DNA of 50,845 nucleotides from Candidatus Levyibacteriota bacterium. Lineage in GTDB: Bacteria; Patescibacteriota; Microgenomatia; Levybacterales; UBA12049. Positions within the stretch are counted from its first letter, which is position 1; every line of letters starts with the position of its first letter. The position numbers and the translations under genes are program-made. Below the pieces are notes generated by a model. It was not told the DNA's origin and did no database searches. It saw only the letters and a list, made by a program, of their open reading frames with translations. Positions 968-42,637 of this stretch are shown here, one piece after another. The stretch is from positions 1 through 50,845 of the forward strand of contig JACPGQ010000003.1 of the NCBI GenBank assembly GCA_016188975.1. The letters run 5' to 3'.

Positions 968-1056
968 GGGTTCATTTTGCTAAAAAAGAGGAAGAATGTC
1001 AAACAGTATCCGAATACATCCGAATTTAGTTTGGATTGTCGCCACTGCCTTTTACT

Positions 1057-1260
1057 CACCACAACTTGTGATGGAATAACCATTTAGCCTCGATTTTCAC
1101 CACAACAGTTGTGGTGACCCACCACAACTGAGGCTAATTCCACCACAACCGTTGTGGACCACAACCTATAGTTGTGGTGGTTTGAGGCTAGATTTGTGGT
1201 GGTGTGATGACTTAAAAAGTAGCACATGCATTTTTGTGGTGAAGTTATGGTGGCCACAAG
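1057..1260. repeat. array of about 12 CCACCACAAC / GTTGTGGTGG boxes, several forming palindromic pairs
   Basis: Forward boxes start at 1057, 1098, 1118, 1140 and 1158. Reverse boxes start at 1066, 1108, 1151, 1171, 1194, 1234 and 1247. The 19-nt palindrome CACCACAACAGTTGTGGTG spans 1098-1116. The outer units TAGCCTC..CACCACAAC (1086-1106) and GTTGTGGTGG..GAGGCTA (1171-1187) are inverted copies. The 67-aa ORF 1084..1287 is made of these repeats and is probably spurious. Confidence 0.85.
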
Positions 1261-1402
1261 TAGTATTTCCAACTGAATAGGTTGCAAGAAATCAGAATCG
1301 TCACAAAGTATAATACTATGTAGTACTATACTCTAGGAAAATAATGTTTATATATCCTGTCCTTGCAATCTAATTACGAGAAGAGTAGAATCACCTTAGT
1401 TT

Positions 1403-1978
1403 ATGGAACGCGCAAGATCTTGGTCGAGCATTGATAATCTAAGATTACGATCCCCTATTGAGACACAATTGGACGAAATTGCTGTTGATGCACGAATAGT
1501 AGTAGATGATCTTCGCCGCTCTCCTACTCTAGCTCCATACCTTATAGGAGATAGTGGACTTCCAGGATCTTTCTCACTTTTTAGAAGAATACAGCAAGTA
1601 CTACAAAGAAATCCCGACTTGCTCGATGAGCTTAATCGTGTAGCTGATGCACACCCAGATCATGTAGCACTCTTAGTAGCACCAGATGTCTCCGAAGGAC
1701 AACCACTCATTCTTTCTCGCTATGGAAATACAACCTCAGCTGTCGTACCAATACTTGGGTGCACGAGAATGGCGATGAAAGATACGTGGGGCAATAAACG
1801 TCCACAAGAGGGTTATGATCTTTTTTTATCTGACAACGGTCTTATGGAAGACGCATGGGAAATGGCAGAAGCTACGGATGGTGATGGCATAATGACATAT
1901 CATAGGACAAAGATGAGTCCTGAAGATTATGTTGGTTTAGCATGCAAGGAGTATTTTACAATGAACCTCTTAGATTAG
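1403..1978 (+). CDS. hypothetical protein
   Basis: 191-aa ORF with no recognisable motif. A TAGAAT box at 1386-1391 lies 11 nt upstream of the ATG. Confidence 0.45.
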   Translation: MERARSWSSIDNLRLRSPIETQLDEIAVDARIVVDDLRRSPTLAPYLIGDSGLPGSFSLFRRIQQVLQRNPDLLDELNRVADAHPDHVALLVAPDVSEGQPLILSRYGNTTSAVVPILGCTRMAMKDTWGNKRPQEGYDLFLSDNGLMEDAWEMAEATDGDGIMTYHRTKMSPEDYVGLACKEYFTMNLLD

Positions 1979-2011
1979 CCTTCGATCAGGCGCAGATGCT
2001 TGCAGAGTAAA

Positions 2012-2773
2012 TCATTTTTTCCTCAATAAATACTTCTTCCGCTCTTCTTCAGAAAAGTGTTCTATAGCATAGCGGAGAGCTGTACGGCCCATCTCGTGTT
2101 TGTGTTTGGTGAGAAAATTCTTGAGGTCTTCCCGACTCACTCTCTTCCCTACTTCCCGAAGCATCCAGCCGACTGCTTTTTGGATGAGGTCGTTTTTATC
2201 ATGAAGCAATAGTGTCGCAATAGTTATCGCCTCATCTGATTTACCGTTTTTGATAAATGCGTAGGTCGAGATCATCGCAATACGGCGTTCCCAGAGAGAG
2301 GGAGATTTGGCAAGGGTTTTGAGAAGATCAAGGCTATTGTCACTTCGCCCGCCTTTGGCGAGGCTTCGCTCCTTCCTCGAAGAGTAAAGATACTCTCCCA
2401 CTATCTTATCGGCGCTGAGATCAACCAGATCCCAATTGTTTATATACTTCGTATGCGCCAGATAAAAATCAACTAGTGCGTTTTGCTCCTTAGGATCAGC
2501 CTTTTGAAATTGCGCAACCAAAATAAGTAAAGCAATCAACCGCTCTTCATGAATTTCCGATTGCAATAATGTCTCAACATCCTTGAATGGAAAATCTTTG
2601 TACTTTTTTGCAATATCTCGTGACTGCGGGACAGTAAGTCCTACAAAGACATCTCCTTCTCCATACTGTCCTTTTCCCGTTTTAAAGAAACCTGAGACAA
2701 ATGCAGCTTTTTCTTTGCTGGCTAGCTTTGCTACCTCTCTACGGAGTTGTTGTAAAAGATTTTGTTGCTTCAT
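2012..2773 (-). CDS. DNA alkylation repair protein (AlkD-like HEAT-repeat family)
   Basis: 253 aa. It shows GEGDVFVGLTVPQSRDIAKKY, HEERLIALLILV, NNWDLVDLSADKIVG, SLWERRIAMISTY and KAVGWMLREVGK, which are characteristic of the DNA_alkylation family. Confidence 0.75.
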   Translation of the reverse strand: MKQQNLLQQLRREVAKLASKEKAAFVSGFFKTGKGQYGEGDVFVGLTVPQSRDIAKKYKDFPFKDVETLLQSEIHEERLIALLILVAQFQKADPKEQNALVDFYLAHTKYINNWDLVDLSADKIVGEYLYSSRKERSLAKGGRSDNSLDLLKTLAKSPSLWERRIAMISTYAFIKNGKSDEAITIATLLLHDKNDLIQKAVGWMLREVGKRVSREDLKNFLTKHKHEMGRTALRYAIEHFSEEERKKYLLRKK

Positions 2774-3918
2774 GCCAGAAGACGTTTCTCTTTGACAAAC
2801 ATGAGAAGTACTACGGCGAGTGCTGTCAAACCAAACGAGAAGTAAAGCGGCACGAGCATCCCAAACCTATCCCAAAGAATCCCAGCTAGAAATGAGGCAG
2901 GAAGACTCATAAGGCCTATGACCATCTGAAACCCGCCGAGAGTTGATGCGACAAAATCCTTGGGTGCTAGCTCAGCGACAAAGGTTTTTTGTACGGGCTC
3001 TATAGCTCCTTTGTGGAGCCCGTACAACACGAAAGCGACAATAACGACAAACATCTTCTGTGAGAATGCCAGAGAAAGTAGCAGCATTGCCCAAAATGTG
3101 AGCGAAAGATATAAAACACTTTTTCTCCCAATCCTGTCTGATAGCTTACCGAAAGGAATTGATGTCAAGGCTGCAACAACAGTAAAGAGGAGATACAAGA
3201 GTGGAAGTGATGCTACTTGAAACCCTTCGCCACTTGCAAAAATGAGCAAAAACGAATAGCTGAAAGCTCCGAGTGAAAAAAAAGCGTTTGAAACTGTGTA
3301 GAGCAAAAGGTCCTGACCGAAATGAGAAAAAGATATTCCTTTATATAAACGTATATAAGGCGTCTTGTGTTCTTTTATGACAAAGAAAACAAGCATCACT
3401 GCAAGGAGTGACGGGATCGCGGCAACAAAAAAAAGCGTTCTGTACCCGATAAGCGGAAGGAGGAAAAAAGCGAGAAGAATACCAACGACCGCTCCCGCAT
3501 TATCCATCGCACGGAGAATCCCAAAGTGTTTTCCACGATTGGTGTTGTCTGAAACATCTGAAATAATCGCATCTCGTGGAGACCCCCGCATCTTCCCGGA
3601 TCTGTCCAAGATCCGAAACGGGATAAGATACTGCCAGGCAGGAGAAAGTGCGTATCCGACATGGGCAATTGCACCAAAAAGGTACCCGGTCCAGATAAAC
3701 ACCTTGCGTTTTTTCAGCCGATCCGAGTAGTACCCAGATACTGCCTGTGAAAGAGAGACAACAGCATCCCCAAGCCCATCAATAAACCCAAGCGTTGCCA
3801 TGTTTGCACCAAGAACCTGCGTAACAAAAACAGGCCAGACAGAAAAAACCATATCTGACCCGCAATCGTGGAGAAATGAAGCAGCCGAAAATGTCCTAAC
3901 TGTTTTTTTCGCTTCCAT
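2770..3918 (-). CDS. MFS transporter
   Basis: 382 aa with about 12 predicted TM helices and the loop motif SDRLKKRKVFIWTG between TM2 and TM3. Its stop overlaps the start of the downstream gene by 4 nt. Confidence 0.8.
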   Translation of the reverse strand: MEAKKTVRTFSAASFLHDCGSDMVFSVWPVFVTQVLGANMATLGFIDGLGDAVVSLSQAVSGYYSDRLKKRKVFIWTGYLFGAIAHVGYALSPAWQYLIPFRILDRSGKMRGSPRDAIISDVSDNTNRGKHFGILRAMDNAGAVVGILLAFFLLPLIGYRTLFFVAAIPSLLAVMLVFFVIKEHKTPYIRLYKGISFSHFGQDLLLYTVSNAFFSLGAFSYSFLLIFASGEGFQVASLPLLYLLFTVVAALTSIPFGKLSDRIGRKSVLYLSLTFWAMLLLSLAFSQKMFVVIVAFVLYGLHKGAIEPVQKTFVAELAPKDFVASTLGGFQMVIGLMSLPASFLAGILWDRFGMLVPLYFSFGLTALAVVLLMFVKEKRLLA

Positions 3919-4020
3919 ACTTCAATAATAATCTTATTGTCCGGGCCTGTCCACCAAAGCAGAATTCACATGTTTTTATATGCTACCCAGCATCTTTGTG
4001 TAATAAAAATATGAACTTGT

Positions 4021-4054
4021 GGAAAAAGGAAAGCCGGAGACTTTCGTCCCCGGC
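4021..4054 (-). terminator. candidate intrinsic terminator (minus strand)
   Basis: On the minus strand the hairpin GCCGGGGAC-GAAA-GTCTCCGGC (4033-4054) is followed by TTTCCTTTTTCC (4021-4032). It lies about 500 nt downstream of the stop of the GNAT gene. Confidence 0.45.
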
Positions 4055-4455
4055 CCGTATGCGTGTGTGATCATAGCAGCTCTACAAATGACTTCGATTG
4101 TCCCTCGACCCGCTCGGAATCACGAAAATCTTTGTAGGGCTTGATTGATTATATGAATAGTCTTTGTTGAAAAAAAAGTTTGAGGGAGAAATCGATGTGA
4201 CATAGGGCGATAATACAGGAGAGAACGTGTATCTATCATAAAAATGATGTAAAAACTTCGTAAGGACTTCTGTGCTTACACCTACGGAATTTCAGGGGTT
4301 TAGCAGAGTTCTGAAATTCACAAAGTTATCCATCTACAATTGTCCCACCTCATCACCTCCGACGTCGTGTTTTACAGATCCCAATCAACCTATCTCAAGC
4401 GGTTAGTTGTGTGTTCGACAATCCTTTAAATGCTTTAAGCAAGCAAATCCACTTC

Positions 4456-4507
4456 GTTTCTATCCACCCCCGGGGTGGAAGTAGCTTTACACCCGCGGAG
4501 GATAAGA
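4456..4507 (+). repeat. 52-bp direct repeat, copy 1
   Basis: GTTTCTATCCACCCCCGGGGTGGAAGTAGCTTTACACCCGCGGAGGATAAGA is identical to 7480-7531. It contains the near-palindrome CCACCCCCGGGGTGG. Confidence 0.95.
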
Positions 4508-4558
4508 ATTGAAGACTTTTATAGTATCTTATACAAACTTATAAGTGAGTGAAACTTA

Positions 4559-5029
4559 TTACAAATCAAGTCCATCTATTTCCGCAGCATATTCAATATA
4601 TCCAGATCGTTTTAATCCAATCTTTTCATACCAGCTCTTCGGAAATTCTTTTCTCACGTCAGTTAATAATCTTACTCCTGTGATCTTTTTCTCTCCTGCT
4701 ACCTCAATGGCTTTCTTTAACAATCCTTTTGCAACTCCTTTACCTCTATACTCAGGTTTTACTTGAATTGAAATAACAAACAGAACATCACTTTGAAAAT
4801 ATGGATTGACGAGATTAAATATTCCTCCCATACAAATTCCAGCTTCGTCTAATGCAACGAAACTATAATCTGGAAAGTAGTTCCAGCATGTCTCTAAGCT
4901 CTCCTTTGCTTTCTCATAGCTCCACTTATGTGTTTCGTCTTCAGAGTATTCATTTTGATAGAGCCTAACCATTTCATCGGTGTATTTTTCTTCAAATTTT
5001 ACAATTTTCATAAGATTACAATAGTGCAC
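4559..5029 (-). CDS. GNAT family N-acetyltransferase
   Basis: 156 aa with the acetyl-CoA motif A IQVKPEYRGKGVAKGLLKKAIEVA. Confidence 0.8.
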   Translation of the reverse strand: MHYCNLMKIVKFEEKYTDEMVRLYQNEYSEDETHKWSYEKAKESLETCWNYFPDYSFVALDEAGICMGGIFNLVNPYFQSDVLFVISIQVKPEYRGKGVAKGLLKKAIEVAGEKKITGVRLLTDVRKEFPKSWYEKIGLKRSGYIEYAAEIDGLDL

Positions 5030-5897
5030 CGCTAAGAATCCTAAATTCTTTGTTGGTTTCCCAAATTTTCTTTAGTTCATCAAAGTTCTCATCAAGATTC
5101 TTCATCAACTCTGCAAGATGATCTATTTCTTTCAATTTCTCTTTTGAAAGATTTTTGAAATTATTAAGCATGACTGGGACTGGATGATGTAGATAAATGA
5201 TCTCGCTATTCATGAGGCAGTGGAAGTCATAAAAAAGCTCCCATGCAATACAGACCAACCCATCAAATCCTCCAGCATTTCTAAAATGCTTGCCATCTCT
5301 TTTTCCATGTCGTACATCAAGCCACACATCAGCTGAAAAATCGAATTTACCTTCCGGCATGTCGTACATATCAAACCTAGTTCTGTGCCAACTACCGTCT
5401 ACATCTATTGTTATCCATCTATTTTTAGATCTGTCCCGATACTGATTTATCCAATGATCCCAAGCATCGTTTGTTCCCTCAAAATATGCTGCAAACCCGG
5501 ATCTTACTCGTGCTGGGACACCTTTTGCTTTAAGTATTGAAGCCATAAGTATTGCAACATTTCGACATGTCAGAACGAGTTTGTCCTCAGCTTTTCTTTC
5601 CACAGTGATTCCTCGTCCATCTCGACGAAAAAATTCTGCAAGCATGGCGGCTGTCGTCACAAGGTTGTCATCTTCTGCCTGTCTCCACCAGGGAATTTTC
5701 CTCATATCGCCATACTTGAGATCAATATTTGTCCCAACATTACCAGCCTCTAAAGTTGTACGATGAAGAAAGTTCTTTCGGAGAAGTTCACCTAATTCTT
5801 TTACATCGTCAGGCAGTGTTTTTAAATAATCCTCATATAAACCAGGATATGTGAACATTCCACACTGTAAATAATAATCAAGTATCTTTTGTTGCAT
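5016..5897 (-). CDS. transglutaminase-like domain protein
   Basis: 293 aa. It has LTCRNVAILMASILKAKGVPARVRSGF (catalytic Cys context) followed by WDHWINQY (His), as in transglutaminase-like cysteine protease folds. A TATACT box lies 6 nt upstream of the ATG. Confidence 0.7.
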   Translation of the reverse strand: MQQKILDYYLQCGMFTYPGLYEDYLKTLPDDVKELGELLRKNFLHRTTLEAGNVGTNIDLKYGDMRKIPWWRQAEDDNLVTTAAMLAEFFRRDGRGITVERKAEDKLVLTCRNVAILMASILKAKGVPARVRSGFAAYFEGTNDAWDHWINQYRDRSKNRWITIDVDGSWHRTRFDMYDMPEGKFDFSADVWLDVRHGKRDGKHFRNAGGFDGLVCIAWELFYDFHCLMNSEIIYLHHPVPVMLNNFKNLSKEKLKEIDHLAELMKNLDENFDELKKIWETNKEFRILSGALL

Positions 5898-5947
5898 GAG
5901 CTTAGTATAGCTTTTATTATTTTATAATCAACTAGAATCCTTGGTGA

Positions 5948-5953
5948 TATAAT
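5948..5953 (+). promoter_or_regulatory. extended -10 box (TGaTATAAT) 6 nt upstream of a start codon
   Basis: TATAAT at 5948-5953 is preceded by TG at 5945-5946. The ATG is at 5960 and there is no Shine-Dalgarno sequence between them. Confidence 0.45.
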
Positions 5954-5959
5954 CCTTTT

Positions 5960-6487
5960 ATGCAGTCACCAACCTTTTATATATTCTGTGGTCTTCCTTT
6001 TGCCGGGAAAACTGTTCTTACGAAGAAGCTAATAGATAAACTTGGCTTTGTGCCTGTCAACATTGACGATATTAAATTCGCTCGTGGTTTTGAAGGAGTT
6101 TCAGATGATGATGTAAGTGATGAGGATTGGCAAAAGATATATCAGAAATCATGTGACATCTCTCATAAGTGTCTTAATGAAGGAAAAAGCGTATTGTATG
6201 ATAGTTCTAACTTAACAAGAGCAATAAGGGATGACATTAGAAAAAATATGGCAAAATGTAACTTTTCAATAAAAGTCCTCTGGCTCGATATACCATTTGA
6301 CATTGTGAAGGAAAGATACCAGAAAAACAAAATAAAAAAAGAGAGATTTGATATTCCAAATAACATTTTTCAAGAAGCCATTGATACTTATGAGCCGCCA
6401 ACGGAAGATGAGAATATGATTCTTTACACCCAAGATATGGATTTTGATACATGGATCAAAAAGAACTTCTACATAGCTGCAGAATAA
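5960..6487 (+). CDS. P-loop kinase / AAA family ATPase (AAA_33-like)
   Basis: 175 aa with Walker A GLPFAGKT near the N-terminus. Size and layout resemble small-molecule or polynucleotide kinases. Confidence 0.6.
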   Translation: MQSPTFYIFCGLPFAGKTVLTKKLIDKLGFVPVNIDDIKFARGFEGVSDDDVSDEDWQKIYQKSCDISHKCLNEGKSVLYDSSNLTRAIRDDIRKNMAKCNFSIKVLWLDIPFDIVKERYQKNKIKKERFDIPNNIFQEAIDTYEPPTEDENMILYTQDMDFDTWIKKNFYIAAE

Positions 6488-7399
6488 ATGAATACAGAGA
6501 TTTTTAACAAATACTTACCAATCATTAATATATATTATCCTGAGTGTACGAGTGAGAAGGTAGCACTTCTTGACGAGGGGCATGATCACTATGTCTTTCT
6601 TGTCAATAAGATGCATGCATTCCGTTTCCCTCGAACAGATGCACATGGTAAGCAAGATCATGTGATCAATGCATTTTCTCAAAAATTCGCTCCTATTTCT
6701 CCTGTTCCAATCCAAAAAATGGCTGGCCATGTTGACCCAAAGACTAGTATAAAATATCAAACATACGACTTTATTCCAGGTGTTACTCTTTCAAGAGAAC
6801 TCGCTGCTTCTTTAACAGAAGGTGAGTTAATAGAAATTGCAAAAGATATGGGAGGTTTTCTTTCTCGTCTGCATACATTTCCTCTTGATCAGGCAAGAGA
6901 AATGCAAATGGACGAATTGGTTAGTCCACCAGATTATGGCGAGTATTTTAAAGATTTTCTTAAGAAAGATAGAATTGCTTTCTTCTCATTGTTATCAGAA
7001 AAAGAGCAAGTTTGGATCGATCAGTCAATTGAAGCATTTTATAATTTAACGAGAGAGCATTCTTTTCCGTTTACTGTTACGCATTCAGATATGCTTGCTG
7101 AGCACATTCTCATTGACGAGATAACCCACAGACTCAGTGGTGTTATCGATTTTTCACTACGTATTGCAGATCCTGCAAATGATTTCAAGGTTTTTGATGG
7201 ATATGGTGAGGCATTTTTGAAAGCAGTCTACGAGAACTATCTTCCCGTCGATGAGTACTTTGATAAAAGAAGAGCGTTCTACGCGGGAAATCTCCCTGGA
7301 GCAAATCTCTACCAAGCAATTGAGAGAAGTGACGCAAAGATGGTTAATCAGTACTTGAGAGAATTAAAAGAATATATCAGTAACCATCCATCAACTTAA
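6488..7399 (+). CDS. aminoglycoside phosphotransferase (APH) family kinase
   Basis: 303 aa with the catalytic loop HSDMLAEHILID and GVIDFSLRIADPANDF (Brenner and DFG-like motifs). It starts 1 nt after the stop of the preceding gene. Confidence 0.8.
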   Translation: MNTEIFNKYLPIINIYYPECTSEKVALLDEGHDHYVFLVNKMHAFRFPRTDAHGKQDHVINAFSQKFAPISPVPIQKMAGHVDPKTSIKYQTYDFIPGVTLSRELAASLTEGELIEIAKDMGGFLSRLHTFPLDQAREMQMDELVSPPDYGEYFKDFLKKDRIAFFSLLSEKEQVWIDQSIEAFYNLTREHSFPFTVTHSDMLAEHILIDEITHRLSGVIDFSLRIADPANDFKVFDGYGEAFLKAVYENYLPVDEYFDKRRAFYAGNLPGANLYQAIERSDAKMVNQYLRELKEYISNHPST

Positions 7400-7458
7400 C
7401 AGCTTCTTGTCATTCATTAAAGATAATCTTACCAGAAGCTACCTCTTTTATCATAAAA

Positions 7459-7908
7459 TTATTCTTTGGAATTTCTAGTGTTTCTATCCACCCCCGGGGT
7501 GGAAGTAGCTTTACACCCGCGGAGGATAAGAGGATAAGAGTGAGGAGTCACGATATTTATTGATTGATCGCGGAAGTACTCTGCAAATCGTTGCATCAAA
7601 ACTTCAAATGTTCCTCGTTGTATAAGAAGCGAATTTCTATAGTCAATAGCAAGCTCCACCGGGAGTGCAGGATCGCCTCCGTTTTCAATATAATAAAATG
7701 GAACGTCAGGCATTCGATAAATGAAAAATGGCGATATGACTCCTGGCACCATCCCGAGCATACGAGTTGGGTCAAAAGTTGATAAGCTCGTGCCAATAGT
7801 CGTAACAACCGTATACCGTGGTGAGTTGCCGATAAACTTGAGAGTAACTGTGCGGACTGGTTCTGGAGGAGTATCTGAATCAAAATGCATCCGTGTGTAA
7901 CAGTTCAC
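7459..7908 (-). CDS. hypothetical protein whose C-terminal 17-24 residues are encoded by the 52-bp repeat
   Basis: 149-aa ORF with an alternative start (an ATG lies 6 codons in). No known motif. Its 3-prime end runs through repeat copy 2. Confidence 0.4.
   Translation of the reverse strand: MNCYTRMHFDSDTPPEPVRTVTLKFIGNSPRYTVVTTIGTSLSTFDPTRMLGMVPGVISPFFIYRMPDVPFYYIENGGDPALPVELAIDYRNSLLIQRGTFEVLMQRFAEYFRDQSINIVTPHSYPLILRGCKATSTPGVDRNTRNSKE
7480..7531 (+). repeat. 52-bp direct repeat, copy 2
   Basis: Identical to 4456-4507. It is followed by a local duplication of GGATAAGA. Confidence 0.95.
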
Positions 7909-8062
7909 ACTTCGGACAAATTCTGCCGATTGGGAAAATTTGTCAACGTTATGTTAAAAAAATCGGTTTCTAAATTATGTAAGAAACTATCAAGAACATG
8001 ATGAGTTCTCTGTGCCTAGATACTGTATATAGTATGTAGGACGGCTAAAACCTTGATTACTA

Positions 8063-8113
8063 CTGCAAGAGAATTGTGAGAATATTGCAAGAATGCTTCA
8101 CAATTGTAAGAAA
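8063..8113 (+). promoter_or_regulatory. direct repeats TTG(C/T)(A/G)AGAA with 11-bp spacing upstream of the response-regulator gene
   Basis: The boxes are cTGCAAGAGAA at 8063, TTGTGAGAAT at 8074, TTGCAAGAAT at 8085 and TTGTAAGAAA at 8104. A TATACT box sits at 8120-8125. Confidence 0.35.
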
Positions 8114-8131
8114 ATTGCGTATACTACACCC

Positions 8132-8803
8132 ATGACACAAATGGTACTCGTTGTCGAAGATGACAAATCCCTCCAGCAGTACCTCAAAGACATCCTCCTT
8201 GACAACAACTACACTGTACACGTCGTTTCAGATGGCCTGACGGCAATGAAGTACGTCAAAGAAGTAAAACCAGAACTCGTCTTGTTGGATCTCGGGCTTC
8301 CAAACGTGAGCGGCGAAACTGTCTGCAAAGAAATCCGTAAAACCTATCCGGATCTCCCTATCATCATGCTGACAGCACGACAAGGAGCAGCTGAGGTCGT
8401 ACAGGGACTGAGCCTCGGAGCTGACGACTACATCACCAAGCCCTTTGTTGCTGATGAGCTACTTGCACGCATCAAAGCCCGGCTTAGGGAGATAAGATCC
8501 GATGTACCCACGCTCAAACTTGCAGATTTGGAGGTAAACACCCAAAAAGTACAGGTGAAACGCGGCGGAGAAAGCATCTCGCTTACCCCACATGAATTTA
8601 GGCTCTTAGTGTATCTGCTGCAAAATAACGGCGTTGTCCTTACACGGGAAATGATATTAAATAAAATCTGGTCGTACTCACTAGATGTGGAGAGTCGGGT
8701 CGTCGATGTTTACATGGGGTACCTGCGTAAAAAAATCGATGCAAACCACAAGAAAAAGCTCATCCACTCAATCCGCGGGTTTGGGTATACGATTAAAGAA
8801 TAA
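8132..8803 (+). CDS. OmpR-family response regulator (receiver plus winged-helix)
   Basis: It has MVLVVEDD, LVLLDLGLP and KPF receiver motifs, and the C-terminal LTPHEFRLLVYLLQN...GFGY motif of Trans_reg_C. The ORF track starts at 8093. I prefer the ATG at 8132, which lies 6 nt after TATACT. Confidence 0.85.
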   Translation: MTQMVLVVEDDKSLQQYLKDILLDNNYTVHVVSDGLTAMKYVKEVKPELVLLDLGLPNVSGETVCKEIRKTYPDLPIIMLTARQGAAEVVQGLSLGADDYITKPFVADELLARIKARLREIRSDVPTLKLADLEVNTQKVQVKRGGESISLTPHEFRLLVYLLQNNGVVLTREMILNKIWSYSLDVESRVVDVYMGYLRKKIDANHKKKLIHSIRGFGYTIKE

Positions 8804-9463
8804 CTAGTTCTTTTTTTGCCGAAGCGGCAGTATCACACGAATCACCCGCGCTTTTTTTACCGTCCTGTCCTCAAGCTTCCCACTATGTTTGGAAACTGCA
8901 AGAGATGCTATAGCAAAAAGCAATGCACGCTCAACACTCGATTCTGACTGATCGTGCTTACCAAAACTCTTGTGGTCCGTAAGAAAGAGAAAAATAGCCC
9001 TCCTCTTCTCAACTGAAATATCGATTGAGAGCATTTCTCTAGCCTGCAGGACAAAAAGTATGACCCCTTTCATAGCCAGAGTGAGTAAAGCTTTATCTCC
9101 CATCATTTCTTTCGTTGCAGTTTTTTCAAAACGAATCTGCCGCTGCTCATCGGCATGGAGTGAAGAAACTGCATCATTTAGTATGTCTTGCACAGAAAAA
9201 AACGAATAGACAAATGCAGGATTATCCTCATGGAGCCGTATGTATTCCACTACCTGGGTTGTGCGCTCTGTCAGAAGATTGACCTTTTTTTGGAGACTTT
9301 CAATCTGAGGAAGATAGCTTTTATGCTTCTCTTTTTTCAGCTGTCGCTCCAGTATAAAAAGCAGAGATTGTACGCTAGCAAGAGGCGACTTGAGGTGATG
9401 CGCGAGTATCCCATACGGTACAACCAAAGGGAAATGAGTTTTCTTTGGCATAGAGAGAAACAA
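8804..9463 (-). CDS. histidine-kinase-like protein with a DHp H-box but a degenerate ATPase domain
   Basis: 219 aa. It has the H-box ILAHHLKSPLASVQSLL, no TM segment, and no clear N, G1 or G2 boxes in the C-terminal half. Confidence 0.5.
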   Translation of the reverse strand: MFLSMPKKTHFPLVVPYGILAHHLKSPLASVQSLLFILERQLKKEKHKSYLPQIESLQKKVNLLTERTTQVVEYIRLHEDNPAFVYSFFSVQDILNDAVSSLHADEQRQIRFEKTATKEMMGDKALLTLAMKGVILFVLQAREMLSIDISVEKRRAIFLFLTDHKSFGKHDQSESSVERALLFAIASLAVSKHSGKLEDRTVKKARVIRVILPLRQKKN

Positions 9464-9502
9464 GTATACTATAGCAACGTAATCTTGTCAGAACGAAGTC
9501 AT

Positions 9503-9883
9503 TCAAGCAATCACGGGGAGCATGTGTGTTCGAATTATCTGTAAAAGTTCTTCTGTGTCAAAAGGCTTTGCGAGATAACCAGCTATCCCCAAATTAGTTG
9601 CCTCCTGCTGCCCGGAAGGATGGGCTGAAAACATAACAATTGGGATATTTTCTGTCCTTTTATCATGCTTCAACTCCGTTGCAATCTGCTTCCCGTCCTG
9701 TCCGGAAAGAAAAAGATCGAGAAGCACTATGTTTGGAGCAAATCCACAAACCGTTGCAACAATATTCTCAGCCTTTCTTACCGCCTTGACAATGTAGCCT
9801 TGGTCCTGCAGACAATAGGTAAGCGCCTCAACTATTGACTCATCGTCATCGATCACAAATATCTTACCACTGTTTTTTGCCAT
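9503..9883 (-). CDS. single-domain response regulator (CheY-like receiver)
   Basis: It shows KIFVIDDDESI, VLLDLFLSGQDG and AKPF motifs. The start is set at the internal ATG (MAKNSG). The longer ORF to 10066 overlaps the upstream gene. Confidence 0.8.
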   Translation of the reverse strand: MAKNSGKIFVIDDDESIVEALTYCLQDQGYIVKAVRKAENIVATVCGFAPNIVLLDLFLSGQDGKQIATELKHDKRTENIPIVMFSAHPSGQQEATNLGIAGYLAKPFDTEELLQIIRTHMLPVIA

Positions 9884-9945
9884 TCCATTATTATCGCACA
9901 CGAAATAGAAAGCTGGTAAAAAAAATGTAAGAGACACGTAAGAGC

Positions 9946-11622
9946 TTAGTGCTCTATCGCGTGGAGCACGGGGAGATACATTCTCTCGATGTAGGCTCTG
10001 AACATTCGCGTCGCGCTGAATTGGTTCAGAGACATTGCTCGGGCATTTTTCATATGCGCCACCCACTCGTCTCTTTGCTCAAAATACATCGGAAGAATCT
10101 GGTCATGTAAAGCATTGTGAATACTTTTGCTAATACTATCATTATCAAGTATCCATCCAATTCTGAATAGCTCTGCTTCATCTACCCACCCGTCTTTCGT
10201 ACTTACCGGAATTGTTCCGTTTAAAGCAGCTTTCATGCCGCTTGTGCCACATGCCTCAAATCCGACGACTGGGGTATTGATCCATATATCACACCCAGCG
10301 ACCATCAACCGGGCAAGTTCCAGGTTATAGCTTGAAAGATACACGATTATATCTTTCAGCTCATTTTTTGCCAAATGAACAATCTGTTGCATAAGAGAAG
10401 CACCGTCGACGTCCCCCGGAGGCGCAAATCCAGATACAACGACGCGGACTCTTCTTCCCTCTGCTGTGGCCAGAGACTTGAAACGCTCTACGTCTTGAAA
10501 GAGGGCGAGGGGCCTTTTGTAGGGAACCATCCGTCTTGCCCACCCGATAACAAAATCCTCTTCGTCCCACGACACTCCCGTCCGCACGTGAAGATATGAG
10601 AGGAGTTTTTGCTTTTGCCCTGTATGGTACGCAAGAACATCATCCCCAACCTCTCCATCCCAGGTTGGGATGTGTACGCCATTTGTTACAATTTCCATGG
10701 GATGGTCAGCCCAAATCTCTTTTGCTTTCTGTTGGTGAATCGTGCTGACCGCATTTATCCTGTTTGCGATCCTAAGCGAAAGCATCGTCATCGAAAATCT
10801 GCTTGAATCCTGAATCAGTCCGAGATTGACAATTTCATTTGCGGGGACCTGCAGTTCTTCAGCGTATTTGTGAAGCATTGTCGAAACCAAATCATTACTA
10901 AACACTTCATTGCCTGCACTTACAAGCGTGTGGTTTGTAAATACGATGTGACGTTTTGCAAGCGAGATTGCATCCTGAAAACTCACCTGACGCCTGACCA
11001 TCTCATGACGCATCAGGTCCAGAATAAGCATTGCTGAGTGCCCTTCGTTGAGGTGATAAACGGATGGGTGAATCCTCAGCGCTTCCAAAAGCCGTATGCC
11101 CCCAATCCCTAAAACCATCTCCTGTTTCAGCCGTGTTTCCTTATCCGTCGTGTATAGCCTGCTGGTTATCGCTCTGTCCTCAGCACTATTTTCCTCAACA
11201 TTTGTATCCAGAAGAAAAACGTTCACATTTTTGTAGGAGTACTTCCAGGCGGAAACAAGAATATGCCGGTCTTGGATTGGGACCGTGAGCTTGATCGGAT
11301 TGCCAAAAGTATCATTCACAGGGACGATTCCGCTGTCTTTTGGGCCGAGCACTACCGTCCCGTCCACAATACTTCCGGTTTCATCAACTTTTTGTGAGAC
11401 ATATCCTTCTCGATAATAAAGCCCCAATGCAACAAGCGGAAACGACCGGTCTCCCGCTTCTTTGATAGTATCCCCTGACAAAACCCCCAGTCCGCCTGCA
11501 AAAATGGGGAGCTTGTCGGACAAAGCATACTCTGCGCTAAAATACGCGACCGGCTGAGTCTGAAACTGCTTGAAATCGTCAGTCTGGAGAAAAGAAGAAA
11601 ACCAATTCAGATCATCCTGCAT
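9946..11622 (-). CDS. glgP: alpha-glucan (glycogen/maltodextrin) phosphorylase family protein, GT35
   Basis: 558 aa. FSAEYALSDKLPIFAGGLGVLSGDTIKEAGD and EACGTSGMKAALNG (PLP-Lys region) are typical of the short alpha-glucan phosphorylases. Confidence 0.85.
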   Translation of the reverse strand: MQDDLNWFSSFLQTDDFKQFQTQPVAYFSAEYALSDKLPIFAGGLGVLSGDTIKEAGDRSFPLVALGLYYREGYVSQKVDETGSIVDGTVVLGPKDSGIVPVNDTFGNPIKLTVPIQDRHILVSAWKYSYKNVNVFLLDTNVEENSAEDRAITSRLYTTDKETRLKQEMVLGIGGIRLLEALRIHPSVYHLNEGHSAMLILDLMRHEMVRRQVSFQDAISLAKRHIVFTNHTLVSAGNEVFSNDLVSTMLHKYAEELQVPANEIVNLGLIQDSSRFSMTMLSLRIANRINAVSTIHQQKAKEIWADHPMEIVTNGVHIPTWDGEVGDDVLAYHTGQKQKLLSYLHVRTGVSWDEEDFVIGWARRMVPYKRPLALFQDVERFKSLATAEGRRVRVVVSGFAPPGDVDGASLMQQIVHLAKNELKDIIVYLSSYNLELARLMVAGCDIWINTPVVGFEACGTSGMKAALNGTIPVSTKDGWVDEAELFRIGWILDNDSISKSIHNALHDQILPMYFEQRDEWVAHMKNARAMSLNQFSATRMFRAYIERMYLPVLHAIEH

Positions 11623-11741
11623 TCCTTAAAGTATAACAAACATAAAGAGGTTCGGTAAGCGGTAACGAAGCCCGTATCGGTAACGTTAAACGTATAACGT
11701 TTTACGAAACTGGCATCGTAACCGAAAAACGCTAAACATCA

Positions 11742-13451
11742 TTACGCGGTCGCTTTATATGCAGGGTGCGGTGTTTCACTCACCGCACGTTTACGGCTAG
11801 CGATCACCTGCCGATACCACAAATCATACTCTTTTGCCGCGTGTTCCCATGAAAAATCACTCTCCAAACAATCAATAACAAGTTTACGCCACAGTGTTTT
11901 CTGCCGGTAAAAAGTCAGTGCTTCAACAATTTTCGCGTAAAGCGCCCATGGGTCGATTGAAGAAAATGAGAAACCGTTGCCGCTTTGTTTCTCAGGATTA
12001 AAATCCTCAATGATGTCATTGAGTCCGCCAGTCCGACGGACCAGAGGAACACAACCATAGCGAAGTGCTTCCAAAGCGACAATTCCTCCCGGCTCAAAAT
12101 AACTTGGGATGAGGATTATATCCCCGCCTGCATATAGCTTTCGGGGAAGACGAAAGTCGCCGCGAAGATGAAGACCAATTTGCTGCGGAAAATCTTGTTT
12201 TAGCAGCTGCAGCTTGTCCCGATAATTTGATTGGTCACTGCTCCCCAGTGCAATGATCTGAAGACCAGGATAAATAGTAAGTACATGAGGCAAAACTGTC
12301 AGTAACAAATCCCACCCTTTCTGCGTTGAGAGCCTTCCGCAACTCACGATGACTGGTACGTTCTCATTTTCTGGAAGAAAAAACAGCTTCTGCAGGTCTT
12401 TTTTGTTCGCTGCTCTTCCTCTCTGAAATGTCTTAATTCCATACCGTCTCTTGATGATGGGATCTGTCGTCGGATTAAATTCCTTGGTATCAAGACCATT
12501 GAGAATTCCTGCTAACTTTCCCCGCGCTTTTATGAGCTCCTCTTCAAGCCCCTCGGCAAACTCGGGAGTCAGCACCTCAACGGCGTGCGATGGACTGACT
12601 GTACTTATCGCATCTGAGAATCTAATTCCCCGAAGGAGCGCGTTCTGTTTTTGCATTTTTGTATCCAGCATCGGGAGGAGCTTATCGTTACCATTATCTT
12701 TATCGGCAGGTGGAGCATAGCGAAAATCAAAATTTCCCTGATATGCAAAATTATGCACTGTATAGACAACTGGAATTTTTTCAAAAACAGGGGCGTATCG
12801 CGGGTCTCGCCTCATCATTTCGATAAGGTATCCCGTATGCCAATCGTTGCAGTGGATGAGATCAGGCCACCATTCAAGCTGCTTATTTTCACTATCTTCA
12901 GACAATCGCTTTATCTGGAGAAAAAACTCTAGGAAGCCTTTTGACAGGAGCGCAAATCGTATATGGTCATCACCATACCCGAAAACATTTGCCCGGAGTT
13001 CGTAGTATTCCCTGTTCTCAAGAAAATAAATATCAGGGTCTGATTCTTTTGCGTGGAAATATTTGACATTGCATATGAGAAAATCTTCTTTGTCTTTACC
13101 CTGAATTTCAACCTGTCTCGACTCACCTACGGGAACACGAAGCCCCTCATAAAGCATGGTAAACTTCCATTTTCCGCTGACATTTTTTTCATCAATCACG
13201 CCGTATTTAGGAGTAAAAATGCGGACATCATGCTTCATGTGTCGGAGTGCTCGGGGAAGAAAATACATGACTTGTGACAACCCGCCAACTGTCGAAAATG
13301 GCGCCACTTCAGCCGCAACAAATAAAATCTTCATGTCTGTATTGTAGCATACGCAAGTTGGATATGCAACAATCGCGATTGCAAGAAGCAGTATTGCTCC
13401 AACGAGGTAGAACACTTTGAACCAGTCAAGATTTAAATACCACTCAATCAT
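11742..13451 (-). CDS. glgA: glycogen/starch synthase (GT5) with a possible N-terminal TM extension
   Basis: The canonical N-terminus KILFVAAEVAPFSTVGGLSQV begins at the internal ATG 13334. The longer ORF adds a TM helix and is ATGA-coupled to the upstream small gene. Confidence 0.85.
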   Translation of the reverse strand: MIEWYLNLDWFKVFYLVGAILLLAIAIVAYPTCVCYNTDMKILFVAAEVAPFSTVGGLSQVMYFLPRALRHMKHDVRIFTPKYGVIDEKNVSGKWKFTMLYEGLRVPVGESRQVEIQGKDKEDFLICNVKYFHAKESDPDIYFLENREYYELRANVFGYGDDHIRFALLSKGFLEFFLQIKRLSEDSENKQLEWWPDLIHCNDWHTGYLIEMMRRDPRYAPVFEKIPVVYTVHNFAYQGNFDFRYAPPADKDNGNDKLLPMLDTKMQKQNALLRGIRFSDAISTVSPSHAVEVLTPEFAEGLEEELIKARGKLAGILNGLDTKEFNPTTDPIIKRRYGIKTFQRGRAANKKDLQKLFFLPENENVPVIVSCGRLSTQKGWDLLLTVLPHVLTIYPGLQIIALGSSDQSNYRDKLQLLKQDFPQQIGLHLRGDFRLPRKLYAGGDIILIPSYFEPGGIVALEALRYGCVPLVRRTGGLNDIIEDFNPEKQSGNGFSFSSIDPWALYAKIVEALTFYRQKTLWRKLVIDCLESDFSWEHAAKEYDLWYRQVIASRKRAVSETPHPAYKATA

Positions 13452-13672
13452 GAGACTCCTTTCAAAAGAAGCAGGCTTAGCAAGAAAGCTAAGACTCCTG
13501 CGATCAATCCCAACCCTAGCATAAACAGATCAATAGTGTCAACTCGTGCGAACGCCGGAGCAAGAAATGTTCCGAAGAAAAAAAGACTGAGGTCTTTTGC
13601 ATAATCGGACAATTGCTGCAATTGCGCTTCGTTGAGCCGTGACCGTTTATACCGTCTGATCAACAAAATCAT
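13448..13672 (-). CDS. small membrane protein
   Basis: 74 aa with two hydrophobic helices. Its stop overlaps the glgA start (ATGA). Confidence 0.4.
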   Translation of the reverse strand: MILLIRRYKRSRLNEAQLQQLSDYAKDLSLFFFGTFLAPAFARVDTIDLFMLGLGLIAGVLAFLLSLLLLKGVS

Positions 13673-13727
13673 GTTCGTTTTGTATCACAAACATGCACCC
13701 AATGCAAAATATGCTAAATACCAGCAA

Positions 13728-13991
13728 CTAGTTCTTACCCTCCCCCGTCTGCTTTCTCCCCTCAGTCATCGCGAGGAGATTGCCAAATTCTTTGAGGAAT
13801 TTTTTGGCATGCTCCCTGCTCATTCCCATGCGGGCAACAATCCTCAGCTGATTTGTAGCACCGATTTTCTGTCCGAAATCGAGTACGACACCGTCTTCAT
13901 TTGTCGTCATAAAAATGTTGTCTGTATACAGAATCGGGGTCGTGTCAAGATTGAGATTAATTGAAACCTGTTTCTCATCTTTTTTGTCCAT
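13728..13991 (-). CDS. DUF3467-like protein
   Basis: 87 aa. The segment ILYTDNIFMTTNEDGVVLDFGQ resembles DUF3467. It is one of the few genes here with a clear GGAGGTGA Shine-Dalgarno sequence upstream. Confidence 0.55.
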   Translation of the reverse strand: MDKKDEKQVSINLNLDTTPILYTDNIFMTTNEDGVVLDFGQKIGATNQLRIVARMGMSREHAKKFLKEFGNLLAMTEGRKQTGEGKN

Positions 13992-14161
13992 ACATCATCA
14001 CCTCCATCCACAATGCGAATAGCGTATGGCTCGTTGCCCTAAGGCGAACTTCATAGCAAATGGTCCAAAAAACCATACGCTATATGCCATAAGCCATACG
14101 CAACTTTCTGTGCTAGCAATTATACCCTTTTATAAAGAAGATGTGCTATGCTACACCTTAG

Positions 14162-15322
14162 ATGAAAACCGTTGTGTCGCTCTTCATAGGTGCAGCCATC
14201 ATTACGGTCATCCTCCTAGGCTTTGCCAAATTTCGGCAAGATACTGTTTTTGAAAAACCCGCTCGACCGACCTCACCTCCCTTATCTGCTCAGAAGACAC
14301 CGGAACAAACCGCGCCGGTAACAACAGTAGCTACTGGCCTTGAGGTCCCCTGGGCGATTGCTTTCCTCCCTGAAGGAGGCGATATGCTTGTCACCGAACG
14401 CTCAGGAAGCGTTCGGTTAGTACGAAAAAGTGGCGGACTTGACCCAAATCCTTTGCTGACTATAGAAGACGTTGAAGAAATAGGTGAAGGAGGACTTATG
14501 GGAGTAGCAATCCATCCGGATTTTCCTCAAAAACCGTATGTCTACTTCTACTACACGACCGGACAACGTGGAAGCCAAACGACAAATCAGCTCGTACGCT
14601 ATACGTTTGAGGACGGGGCATTTTCAGATAAAATTGTACTCATAGAAGCTATACCTGGCGCACCAAATCACGACGGAGGAAGAATTAAATTCGGCCCTGA
14701 CTCCTTTCTCTATATTACGACTGGAGACTCGCAAGAACCCTCGCTTGCCCAAAACCGCAATTCATTTGCCGGGAAAATCTTACGCGTCACAGATGAGGGA
14801 AAACCGGCACCTGGTAATCCGTTCATAAGTGGCGGGGGAAATCCCCTTGTCTATTCGTATGGACATCGCAACCCGCAAGGCATCTCGTGGAATAGTAGCG
14901 GTAATCTCTGGGCAACAGAGCACGGACGGTCTGCTCCGACAGGACTTGATGAAATAAACCTGATTGAGAGTGGCCAAAACTATGGCTGGCCGACAATCCA
15001 AGGAGATGAAACAAGATCTGGTATGGTAACACCGAAACGGAACTCAGGACCGACGACAACATGGGCACCATCCGGCGCTGCCTTCGTCAATAATTCTCTG
15101 TTTTTTGCCGGACTTCGGGGAGAAACACTGTATGAAGCAGCAATAAAAGGAGACAACGTCACGCAACTCAAGGAACATTTCAAAGGACAGTTTGGCAGAC
15201 TCCGCGAGGTCGTCCTCAGTCCCGACGGCATGCTCTATGTCACGACGAGTAATAGAGATGGCAGAGGAAGTCCGAGTAATGAGGATGATAGGATTATAAA
15301 AATTGACCCCAACAAACTTTGA
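14162..15322 (+). CDS. PQQ-dependent sugar dehydrogenase (soluble aldose dehydrogenase-like beta-propeller)
   Basis: 386 aa with an N-terminal TM or signal helix, plus GLEVPWAIAFLPEGGDMLVTERSGSVRLV, HDGGRIKFGPD and YSYGHRNPQGISW. Confidence 0.8.
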   Translation: MKTVVSLFIGAAIITVILLGFAKFRQDTVFEKPARPTSPPLSAQKTPEQTAPVTTVATGLEVPWAIAFLPEGGDMLVTERSGSVRLVRKSGGLDPNPLLTIEDVEEIGEGGLMGVAIHPDFPQKPYVYFYYTTGQRGSQTTNQLVRYTFEDGAFSDKIVLIEAIPGAPNHDGGRIKFGPDSFLYITTGDSQEPSLAQNRNSFAGKILRVTDEGKPAPGNPFISGGGNPLVYSYGHRNPQGISWNSSGNLWATEHGRSAPTGLDEINLIESGQNYGWPTIQGDETRSGMVTPKRNSGPTTTWAPSGAAFVNNSLFFAGLRGETLYEAAIKGDNVTQLKEHFKGQFGRLREVVLSPDGMLYVTTSNRDGRGSPSNEDDRIIKIDPNKL

Positions 15323-15375
15323 TTCAAACTCAGAAAATAGTCTACCCAGAATTCTCTTCGCACGTTTACTGAAGA

Positions 15376-15387
15376 TATACTAGTATA
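15376..15387. promoter_or_regulatory. TATACTAGTATA palindrome downstream of the TrpR-like gene
   Basis: This 12-nt perfect palindrome has the same core as the 32-nt palindrome at 15827-15858. Confidence 0.3.
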
Positions 15388-15393
15388 CTTGCA

Positions 15394-15828
15394 CTATTCA
15401 TCAAAAGCTCCTTGAAGGAACTTCGCACGAGCGCGCATATCTGTTTTCGAACGAAGTGCTAAGTCCAATGGCTCAAATGCTTTCTCAATTTTTTTCCAGA
15501 ACTGCCTATTCTTTTCCAGCTTGATTAGTTTTTGTATTTTCCTTATAAATGGTGCTCGTTTATTTTCTAATAAGTACTTATGAGAACGAACTGTTTCAAG
15601 ACTGATTGAAAGACTATTCTGAATTTCTGAGCTCCGAAAGCCTTTTTGTAACATCATATACAAAACAAGTCTCTTTCCTAGCATTGTTCTTTCTTCTTGT
15701 GTTAAAAACTCACCGAGAAATTGATGTATCTCATCTTTTCCTGAGAATGACACAATAAGCGTATTAAGCTGTTCATCAAGCTCTTTCTGTAATTCGACGT
15801 TGATTTTCCTCTTCGAAACCCTCCCCAT
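15394..15828 (-). CDS. TrpR/YerC-like helix-turn-helix protein
   Basis: 144 aa. LTQEERTMLGKRLVLYMMLQKGFRSSEIQNSLSISLETVRSHK resembles the Trp-repressor-like YerC/YecD family. Confidence 0.55.
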   Translation of the reverse strand: MGRVSKRKINVELQKELDEQLNTLIVSFSGKDEIHQFLGEFLTQEERTMLGKRLVLYMMLQKGFRSSEIQNSLSISLETVRSHKYLLENKRAPFIRKIQKLIKLEKNRQFWKKIEKAFEPLDLALRSKTDMRARAKFLQGAFDE

Positions 15829-15858
15829 ACTACAAATATACTAGTATATTTGTAGTAT
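15827..15858. promoter_or_regulatory. 32-nt perfect palindrome at the divergent promoter of the TrpR-like gene and the malic enzyme gene
   Basis: ATACTACAAATATACTAGTATATTTGTAGTAT was verified base by base as self-complementary. It overlaps the ATG of the TrpR-like gene by 2 nt. Confidence 0.6.
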
Positions 15859-15919
15859 TGTAGTAAACGCAAGAAAACGTATGATTAGTATTTATTAGAA
15901 AATATCGTACAATACATCT

Positions 15920-17101
15920 ATGGACGTGTACGAAGAATCGCTCAAACTTCATAAAAAACATCAAGGCAAACTTGAAACGACAGGAATTGTTCAGATAACG
16001 AGTAAACAAGACCTTGCGATCTACTACACCCCAGGAGTCGCTGAGCCGTCACGACAAATTGCTAAAGACAAAACGCTTTCATTTGACCTCACGCTTCGCG
16101 GGAGAACTATTGCAGTCATCTCAGACGGATCTGCAGTACTTGGTCTTGGTAATATCGGAGCAGAAGCAGCACTTCCCGTCATGGAGGGAAAATCACTACT
16201 TCTCAAAAAGTTCGGTGGTGTCGATTCATTTCCACTCGTCATACATGTAAGAACCCCTGAAGAAATCATCCATTTTGTCAGAGATGTCGTACCGACATTC
16301 GCCGGGATACTGCTCGAGGATATTGCAGCGCCAAAGTGTTTCCAGATTGAGGAACAGCTACAAGACCTTGGGATTCCAGTCTTTCATGATGACCAACACG
16401 GGACGGCAATTGTCGTCTCAGCTGCTCTCAGAAACGCGGCCAAAGTCGTCGGAAAACCATTTGAATCACTCAATGTCGTCATAGTCGGCGCTGGAGCTGC
16501 AGGACTTGCAGTTGCACGGATGCTTCTGGGACTTAACTGTGCTGAAGACAGATGCGATCGTCTCCCTGGAAGTAGGTCGGTCAGTGAGGTCATCGTCGTT
16601 GACTCCAAAGGCGCACTCTACTCAGGACGTGATGGACAAAATATCTATAAACAAGCTGTTGCAGGACTTTCGAATAAACAGAGAAAATCCGGTCCTCTTG
16701 AGGAGGTTATAAAAAACGCCGACGCAGTTGTCGGTGTCTCAGGGCCGAATACTATTACGAAGGAGATGGTGGCGAGCATGGCTGACAAAGCAATAGTCTT
16801 TGCGATGGCAAATCCAATTCCTGAAATCATGCCGGATGATGCAAAAGAAGCAGGCGCGTTTGTGATTGCTACAGGACGCTCTGACTTCCCCAATCAAATC
16901 AACAACGTCCTTGCCTTCCCCGGCATTTTTAAAGCTGTAGTGAAAGGAAGACTAAAAACAATCACGCATGAAATGAAAGAAGCAGCAGTTGATGCGATCG
17001 CCAATCTCGTCCCAAACCCGACACAAGAATCCATCATCCCCGACCTCTTTCACCCAGGTCTTGCTGAGAAGATTAGTGAGGCAATATTAAAAGTTAAATA
17101 G
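15920..17101 (+). CDS. NAD(P)-dependent malic enzyme (short form)
   Basis: 393 aa with DLAIYYTPGVAEP, ISDGSAVLGLGNIG, FHDDQHGTAIV, VIVGAGAAG and NNVLAFPGIF. A TACAAT box lies 6 nt upstream of the ATG. Confidence 0.85.
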   Translation: MDVYEESLKLHKKHQGKLETTGIVQITSKQDLAIYYTPGVAEPSRQIAKDKTLSFDLTLRGRTIAVISDGSAVLGLGNIGAEAALPVMEGKSLLLKKFGGVDSFPLVIHVRTPEEIIHFVRDVVPTFAGILLEDIAAPKCFQIEEQLQDLGIPVFHDDQHGTAIVVSAALRNAAKVVGKPFESLNVVIVGAGAAGLAVARMLLGLNCAEDRCDRLPGSRSVSEVIVVDSKGALYSGRDGQNIYKQAVAGLSNKQRKSGPLEEVIKNADAVVGVSGPNTITKEMVASMADKAIVFAMANPIPEIMPDDAKEAGAFVIATGRSDFPNQINNVLAFPGIFKAVVKGRLKTITHEMKEAAVDAIANLVPNPTQESIIPDLFHPGLAEKISEAILKVK

Positions 17102-17489: not shown

Positions 17490-17577
17490 TGGCGGAGAGG
17501 GAGGGATTCGAACTCGCGGTATCTTGCGATACGACGGTTTAGTAAACCGTTACCATAGACCACTCGGTCACCTCTCC
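17490..17577 (-). tRNA. class II tRNA-Ser-like gene, anticodon read as ACT, weak T-stem
   Basis: The minus strand reads GGAGAGG-TG-ACCG-AGTGGTCTA-TGGT-A-ACGGT-TTACTAA-ACCGT, then a long variable arm (GTATC-GCAA-GATAC), then GCGAG-TTCGAAT-CCCTC-CCTCTCC-G-CCA. The acceptor, D and anticodon stems are good. The T-stem has 2 mismatches in 5 pairs. Confidence 0.65.
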
Positions 17578-42611: not shown

Positions 42612-42637
42612 AGGACAGATAAAATTAGAGAGGATGC

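Follow-up and report, generated by a model that had tools for sequence, protein, structure and literature searches.

Systems that pair short repetitive extragenic palindromic (REP) sequences with a REP-associated tyrosine transposase (RAYT, or TnpA_REP), also called REPtrons, are well documented (Nunvar 2010, PMC2817692; Ton-Hoang 2012, PMC3333891; Bertels 2017, PMC5581495; Quentin 2018, PMC6006769), and the pattern has been described for Proteobacteria (PMC5581495, PMC6006769). In the literature searched, no paper was found that joins the terms RAYT, REPIN or REP with Patescibacteria or the candidate phyla radiation (CPR). We present here a locus from Candidatus Levyibacteriota bacterium (GenBank assembly GCA_016188975.1), on contig JACPGQ010000003.1 (C68), whose full length of 50,845 nucleotides is the window analyzed. 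Two identical 52-nt direct repeats in this window bracket a low-GC block of four genes. The repeats are sister copies of a REP-like hairpin element that forms a small dispersed family; the family is linked, here and in related Microgenomates, to a gene for an IS200/RAYT-type HUH (Y1) transposase; and the four genes, acquired horizontally, make up an accessory cassette in a variable stretch of the chromosome. Our favored reading, to which we give a probability of about one half, is that the cassette was gained at a resident REP-like hairpin and that the hairpin was duplicated in the process.

The genome (G000) is 1.31 Mb long in 76 contigs, 94% complete, with a GC content of 43.4%. A preliminary description of the window had reported identical 52-mers enclosing 2972 bp; their coordinates (Table 1) and identity were verified, and the copies are spaced 3024 bp apart. 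The chance expectation for such an identical pair is about 6e-23. The search for further copies proposed in that description was run genome-wide, allowing up to 3 mismatches, and returned the two window copies and no third. Each 52-mer holds a 37-nt motif, TCCACCCC-NN-GGGGTGGA-N10-CACCYGCGGA, which was discovered by following weaker off-contig matches to the left junction in a DNA search. Its parts are a hairpin, T[C/A]CACCCC-NN-GGGGTGGA, then ten variable bases in which the palindrome GTAGCTAC is frequent, and a tail, CACC[C/T]GCGGA. The strict pattern has 10 matches in the genome, against 0 for a reversed control, and nhmmer finds about 12 distinct copies. Most of them sit just downstream of stop codons, at gene 3′ ends. 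Outside the core, the copies diverge from each other; the window copies share 7 nt before and 8 nt after it and are therefore sister copies of each other. In many copies the palindrome GTAGCTAC lies 3 to 4 nt from the hairpin foot, and the copies that flank RAYT-like genes read GTATTG; the tetranucleotide of REP/RAYT systems at this foot is GT[AG]G.

One further copy in the genome, at C7:525-561 (L006), lies in frame within a GatD-like glutamine amidotransferase gene and encodes ...LLHPRGGLVATPAE.... The loop that holds it is hypervariable, as to both length and sequence, among five relatives. An attempt to delimit the mobile unit from this copy failed, the host loop being hypervariable in all relatives. 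Contig C47 begins with the same sequence as the C7 copy, so the hairpin also breaks the assembly. In a species-representative scan (one genome per species), the motif was found at 47 loci, with 1 to 8 loci per genome; where record titles were informative, they named Davies- or Levybacteria or the Patescibacteria group. At four loci of other Microgenomates (L030, L046, L049, and L069), a second conserved module, GCGGATTTTTnAnnnTTTTTGAGGCTAG..., follows the motif, and the repeated unit is about 80 nt long. Neither the motif nor the block's transglutaminase-like protein had a match in the viral contigs scanned.

Two copies in the genome lie beside parts of a RAYT-like gene. On C26, a copy is located about 25 nt upstream of an open reading frame (ORF) starting MPSRAFPFVNDEYYHVFNRG, an N-terminal RAYT-like fragment. 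On C71, a copy immediately follows the 3′ end of an ORF with PNHFHFLL (an HUH motif) and SRYIHLNP that is cut by the contig end. The C71 ORF scores above the Pfam Y1_Tnp cut-off, and four further Y1_Tnp genes are present in the genome (5 to 6 in all), with no Y1_Tnp match on C68. The N-terminal piece (C26:535-942, L007) is 52 codons long and runs into AT-rich DNA with a methyltransferase gene; the C-terminal piece is at C71:2329-2867. The transposase locus of this genome may be disrupted or polymorphic.

At four loci elsewhere (L024, L033, L048, and L059), a RAYT-like gene of 215 to 216 amino acids (aa) lies between near-identical direct motif copies, 712 to 724 bp apart; at three more (L047, L061, and L063), the motif pair around the gene is inverted. 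The RAYT-like protein passes Pfam Y1_Tnp with 33 bits (cut-off, 23), and its only NCBIfam match is NF047646, "REP-associated tyrosine transposase," whose equivalog cut-off of 80 bits it misses with a score of 50.8. Motif and gene are both present in genomes G008, G010, and G011, and neither was found in G001 and G002, which are of the same genus as G000 and 89 to 90% complete. The interval between a cobA-like and a ribonucleotide-reductase-like gene has the arrangement REP-RAYT-REP in L033, L048, and L059. The orthologous cobA-like locus L057 has a single motif copy, no RAYT gene, and an unrelated 148-aa gene. Its cobA-side flank matches that of the proximal copy at 47 to 50 of 70 bases and those of the distal copies at 18 of 70. 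On the far side, the L057 flank and the distal copies have only TTTGTGC in common, at equal offset (with L048, TTTGTGCTT), which is suggestive only. Because L057 has a lone REP where the other three have REP-RAYT-REP, the comparison indicates that changes between "REP-X-REP" and "single REP" occur in this motif family.

The family thus described resembles REP/RAYT systems in that its palindromic repeat is short, rich in G+C, and scattered mainly over sites just outside genes, that repeat copies flank a Y1 HUH transposase gene (C26, C71, and seven loci elsewhere), that its taxonomic distribution is patchy, and that motif and gene co-occur. It differs from them in its copy number (about 12 here, versus tens to hundreds), in a flanking pair that is often direct rather than inverted, in the conserved 20-nt tail after the hairpin, in a protein that stays below the NCBIfam RAYT cut-off, in its CPR/Microgenomates host, and in that a copy pair here brackets cargo genes.

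The enclosed block had been described as more AT-rich than both flanks, and the windowed GC and tetranucleotide analyses proposed as a check were run. The block is an outlier in both: its GC content of 36.0%, against the genome mean of 43.4%, corresponds to z = −3.5 and falls in the lowest 0.4% of the genome's 3-kb windows, and its tetranucleotide distance corresponds to z = +3.4. The GC content at third codon positions is 0.29 to 0.32 in the block genes versus 0.38 to 0.53 in the adjoining genes, and the positions of the 52-mers coincide with the composition boundaries. All four gene types named from the sequence in the preliminary description (GNAT, transglutaminase-like, P-loop kinase, and APH-type kinase) were found by domain match, and it was right that no integrase lies among them. 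The two gene pairs, which had been called convergent, in fact diverge from 5897/5960.

The closest solved structures to the APH-family kinase are those of APH(2″)-Id (E value, 7e-13). This APH(2″)-like kinase and the GNAT protein are candidates for the modification of small molecules or antibiotics. Homologues of the transglutaminase-like gene number more than 1400 (60 to 85% identity), from Roizman- or Levybacteria where named; among 40 relatives of this genome, the gene was found in only one. Beside an 85%-identical homologue at locus L019 lies a divergently oriented AAA_33 gene, 34% identical to that of the block, and the same stretch carries genes for an APH, an Erm-like methyltransferase, a GrpB protein, and a TrwB/VirD4-like protein. 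The best homologues of the APH-family kinase (67 to 69% identity) occur in three unrelated contexts, with the motif in none. These distributions mark the block as a mosaic of widely exchanged accessory genes. The possibility that it is a conserved operon was considered and rejected, as the contexts of the best APH homologues all differ and are motif-free.

Because G002 differs from the window across all of 968-8092, the block sits within a larger variable stretch. Contig C28 of G002 is collinear with the window at 44-967 and 8093-17101; between these segments it has 2.4 kb, versus 7.1 kb here, with no motif copy in the corresponding region. The window's version contains ORF191, an AlkD-like gene, a major facilitator superfamily (MFS) transporter gene, 537 ORF-free bases, the block, and ORF149. 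A comparison with relatives had been suggested as a way to find an empty site; G002 has unrelated DNA across the whole stretch. The ORF-free left flank holds a tail-only motif remnant, CTTACACCTACGGA, at 4272-4293 (a weak nhmmer match; E value, 1.5) and a minus-strand terminator-like hairpin at 4056-4031. Neither this flank nor the region upstream of ORF149 was similar to any other part of the genome or to anything in G002 or G203.

Table 1. Window coordinates of the four-gene block, the repeats that bracket it, and the neighboring features
Feature	Coordinates	Strand	Remarks
Variable stretch relative to G002	968..8092		G002 has 2.4 kb of unrelated genes between orthologues of 596-967 and 8093-8803
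ORF-free left flank	3919..4455		537 bases; 40.6% GC
52-mer copy 1	4456..4507	+	Core 4463-4499: hairpin TCCACCCC/GGGGTGGA, then AGTAGCTTTA, then CACCCGCGGA
Low-GC four-gene block	4508..7479		36.0% GC; present once in the genome, without paralogues
GNAT acetyltransferase, 156 aa	4559..5029	-	Acetyltransf_1, E value 9e-11
Transglutaminase-core-like protein, 293 aa	5016..5897	-	Domain match; homologue search
AAA_33 P-loop kinase, 175 aa	5960..6487	+	Domain match
APH-family kinase, 303 aa	6488..7399	+	Nearest solved structures, APH(2″)-Id
ORF149	7459..7908	-	Truncated relative of a 240-290-aa family, function not known
52-mer copy 2	7480..7531	+	Identical to copy 1 (52/52); core 7487-7523; supplies the final ~24 codons of ORF149 (minus strand)
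GGATAAGA	7532..7539	+	Repeats in tandem the 8 bases that end copy 2

The second 52-mer forms the 3′ end of the minus-strand ORF149, as had been noted from the sequence. An exhaustive HMMER search found only 10 relatives of this ORF, all distant and 240 to 290 aa long save for one 905-aa protein with a short repeated match; no homologue was present in the 40 relatives, and exact-protein look-ups for ORF149 and the response regulator returned no record. In the alignment, about 150 residues are missing from the N-terminus of ORF149 and about 45 from its interior. Homology stops at about residue 120 to 125, and the homologues end within a few residues of the start of the 52-mer, which therefore adds a read-through tail to a decaying gene and is no conserved gene end for an integrase to target. 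The preliminary description had taken the repeat for a gene 3′ end regenerated on insertion. That view does not hold, given the truncation of ORF149, the end of its homology before the 52-mer, and the dispersed family to which the repeat core belongs. Deleting the block and one repeat copy does reproduce the predicted reading frame, ending ...GVDRNEVDLLA-stop. Positions 7524-7539 consist of two tandem GGATAAGA units, the first being the final 8 bases of copy 2, and deletion of 4456-7539 (3084 bp, a multiple of 3) would give an ORF149 ending ...VTPHEVDLLA*, with a length close to that of its homologues. No duplication is visible outside the 52-mers, and the bases adjoining the two copies have no common target motif.

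Recombinase genes had also been proposed as a search target. Tyrosine recombinases were found elsewhere in the genome, where Phage_integrase (PF00589) matches only on C43 (in a 400-aa frame) and C53; Resolvase (PF00239) has no match in the genome, and no tyrosine or serine recombinase gene lies in the block or on C68.

In public sequencing runs, Logan contigs of exactly 3032 bp (SRR12113424 and SRR12113430) consist of the block and, at either end, 30 nt of the 52-mer, and block-left contigs (SRR4343428 and SRR4343430) and left-flank contigs (three SRR12113xxx runs) stop 30 nt into the 52-mer. These breaks are what a k=31 graph is expected to give at a true repeat, and the architecture, or at least two 52-mer contexts, therefore recurs in several runs. 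Look-ups for the flank and block proteins gave only k=31 Logan unitigs, which break inside the 52-mer and do not separate an integrated block from a circle accompanied by an empty site. Among runs, block and flanks are 99.7 to 100% identical. A unitig of SRR12113384 (L087, equal to window 2343-4455) ends at 4455, the base before copy 1, and three other runs break at 4485; the break at 4455 may reflect either missing coverage at the G+C hairpin or a variant junction. In public metagenome contigs, neither the exact 37-mer nor the left flank had a match, and no close relative was found.

A Campbell-type gain of the cassette is favored because the same direct REP-segment-REP layout surrounds the RAYT gene in four genomes and because L057 has a single REP. 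Under this reading, the cassette would arrive as a circle with one REP copy and recombine with the resident REP at the end of the decaying gene ORF149, an insertion that would leave one REP copy on each side of the block. In reverse, recombination between the copies would delete the block and leave a single REP. Candidate catalysts are single-strand cleavage and joining at the hairpin by a Y1 HUH enzyme, homologous recombination (RecA) across the 52 bp, and an integrase supplied in trans; we do not favor a dedicated integrase that targets a gene end. Of the integrated island proposed in the preliminary description, the foreign composition, the sister direct repeats, the lack of a recombinase, and the variable surroundings stand, and the gene-end target does not. 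Several observations count against a gain by this route. This is the only cargo bracket, pairs within one 8-kb locus being found in the species-representative scan only around the RAYT gene and rpsB. For the RAYT-like gene of this genome, the assembly offers just two fragments, on C26 and C71. Other motif copies lack the 7-nt and 8-nt flanks of the 52-mer, and the 8-bp tandem GGATAAGA is not accounted for. REP copies are usually located at gene 3′ ends and the block's operons end at its borders, so two insertions could mimic the bracket. No empty site, circular junction, or block-free strain came to light, the public scans having yielded no close relative.

Two separate insertions of the same REP variant at the 3′ ends of an already resident block, the bracket being incidental, would fit the position of most family copies just past stop codons, the two divergent operons with their 3′ ends at the borders, and the C7 copy, whose in-frame entry into a coding loop shows that insertion occurs. 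We consider this unlikely: the exact variant occurs only twice in 1.31 Mb, both times within 3 kb, the 52-mers coincide with the composition boundaries, and no common target motif lies beside them. Movement of 4456-7531 as one unit is similarly doubtful. Here the segment would be a non-autonomous IS200/IS605-type cargo transposon with the REP hairpins as its ends and Y1 supplied in trans ("peel and paste"). Like IS608, ISDra2, and their non-autonomous derivatives, it has subterminal hairpins at both ends on the same (plus) strand and in the same orientation, and it has neither terminal inverted repeats nor a target duplication beyond the 52-mers; the same direct bracket encloses a Y1 gene in four related genomes, and the 5 to 6 Y1_Tnp genes of this genome could provide the enzyme. 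The ends of IS200/IS605 elements such as IS608 are similar hairpins, not identical 52-nt segments. The block departs from that pattern, and also in having no internal transposase (tnpA) and four passenger genes. It is single-copy, without paralogues, no second insertion site is known, and the RAYT-bracketed units lie at one conserved locus without sign of transposition as units.

A classical integrative island, in which a tyrosine integrase in trans joined a 52-bp attP to the ORF149 3′ end and regenerated it, would account for the direct repeats, the deviant low-GC composition, the accessory cargo, and a single-copy reconstruction that stays open to EVDLLA*, and the C43 recombinase would be a possible enzyme. 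We regard it as quite improbable, since block and contig hold no integrase, homology of ORF149 stops before the 52-mer, ORF149 has no homologue in the 40 relatives and so is not a conserved target, and the repeat core is a dispersed element tied to a Y1 transposase rather than a gene end. The earlier suggestion of a structured RNA or regulatory module used twice was correct as to reuse of a module. That the 52-mer serves as a terminator or mRNA stabilizer after both operons, with no role in mobility, is very unlikely, even though the copies lie just past stop codons, a T-run follows many copies in other genomes, and two competing hairpins can form in the 52-mer. The window copies have no T-run and were not flagged in a terminator scan, Rfam at the gathering threshold gave no match to them (a tRNA was the only match), folding gives weak z-scores, the two copies point in opposite directions with respect to their upstream operons, and their identity reaches beyond the conserved core. 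Least probable of all, and close to negligible, is an assembly artifact in which a separate molecule or a second organism was threaded in via the shared 52-mer. The k=31 graphs leave room for it, since an integrated block looks the same in them as a circle with an empty site; the contig, however, spans both junctions, block and flanks co-occur in the same runs at 99.7 to 100% identity, and 52 bp is shorter than ordinary reads.

Gain at a resident hairpin, as favored here, invites a broader and more speculative proposal: that the RAYT-like HUH transposase and its hairpins form a cassette-exchange system in CPR/Microgenomates, in which any segment between two direct hairpin copies can be excised as a circle with one hairpin and re-inserted at any other hairpin. 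We hold this only tentatively and think it improbable as yet. The exchangeable segment in such a system could be the transposase gene itself or accessory genes like those of this block. If true, this would be integron-like gene gain and loss via single-strand HUH chemistry, without a tyrosine recombinase. The resemblance to integron cassettes and attC lies in a hairpin-forming site that recurs as a direct repeat to the left and right of accessory genes that look promoterless. The 52-mer differs in starting with GTTTCTA, not the GTTRRRY core, and in the absence of the inverse core (RYYYAAC); no integron integrase was identified, and the bracket holds four genes in two orientations.

The window contains several other repeats. 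The sequence GTAACAGTTCAC occurs at 7897-7908, 29387-29398, 43972-43983, and 46289-46300, with three exact copies and one with a single mismatch (0.13 expected). Two of these stand at the head of a 55-nt repeat (29386 and 43971; 96% identity), and the region at 7896, which overlaps the annotated start of ORF149, resembles it. A 26-nt perfect palindrome, TGACCAGTATACATGTATACTGGTCA, with an operator-like look, has four copies over 11 kb, at 37573-37598, 48888-48913, 44848-44873, and 42580-42612. Inverted repeats of 81 nt and 47 nt (94% and 89% complementary) lie 21 kb apart at 26996-27140 and 48005-48127 and look like miniature inverted-repeat transposable elements; related AATTTCTAAATCCTAA-type repeats are found at 17901-18058. 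The sole tRNA gene in the window, at 17490-17577, is predicted by ARAGORN as tRNA-Ser with anticodon ACT (Rfam, 43 bits).

CPR bacteria have tiny genomes with few recognizable mobile elements and widely varying accessory genes, and their gene turnover is poorly understood. The present case ties a compositionally foreign cassette to a REP/RAYT-like hairpin system that, from the literature searched, is apparently undescribed in this group, and it suggests that such hairpins can carry cargo. If the hairpins are not portable recombination sites, the locus would be a small acquired islet of ordinary kind that chances to have a REP copy at either border. If they are, they would provide a concrete mechanism for accessory-gene flux in CPR bacteria and would widen the known roles of domesticated Y1 transposases.

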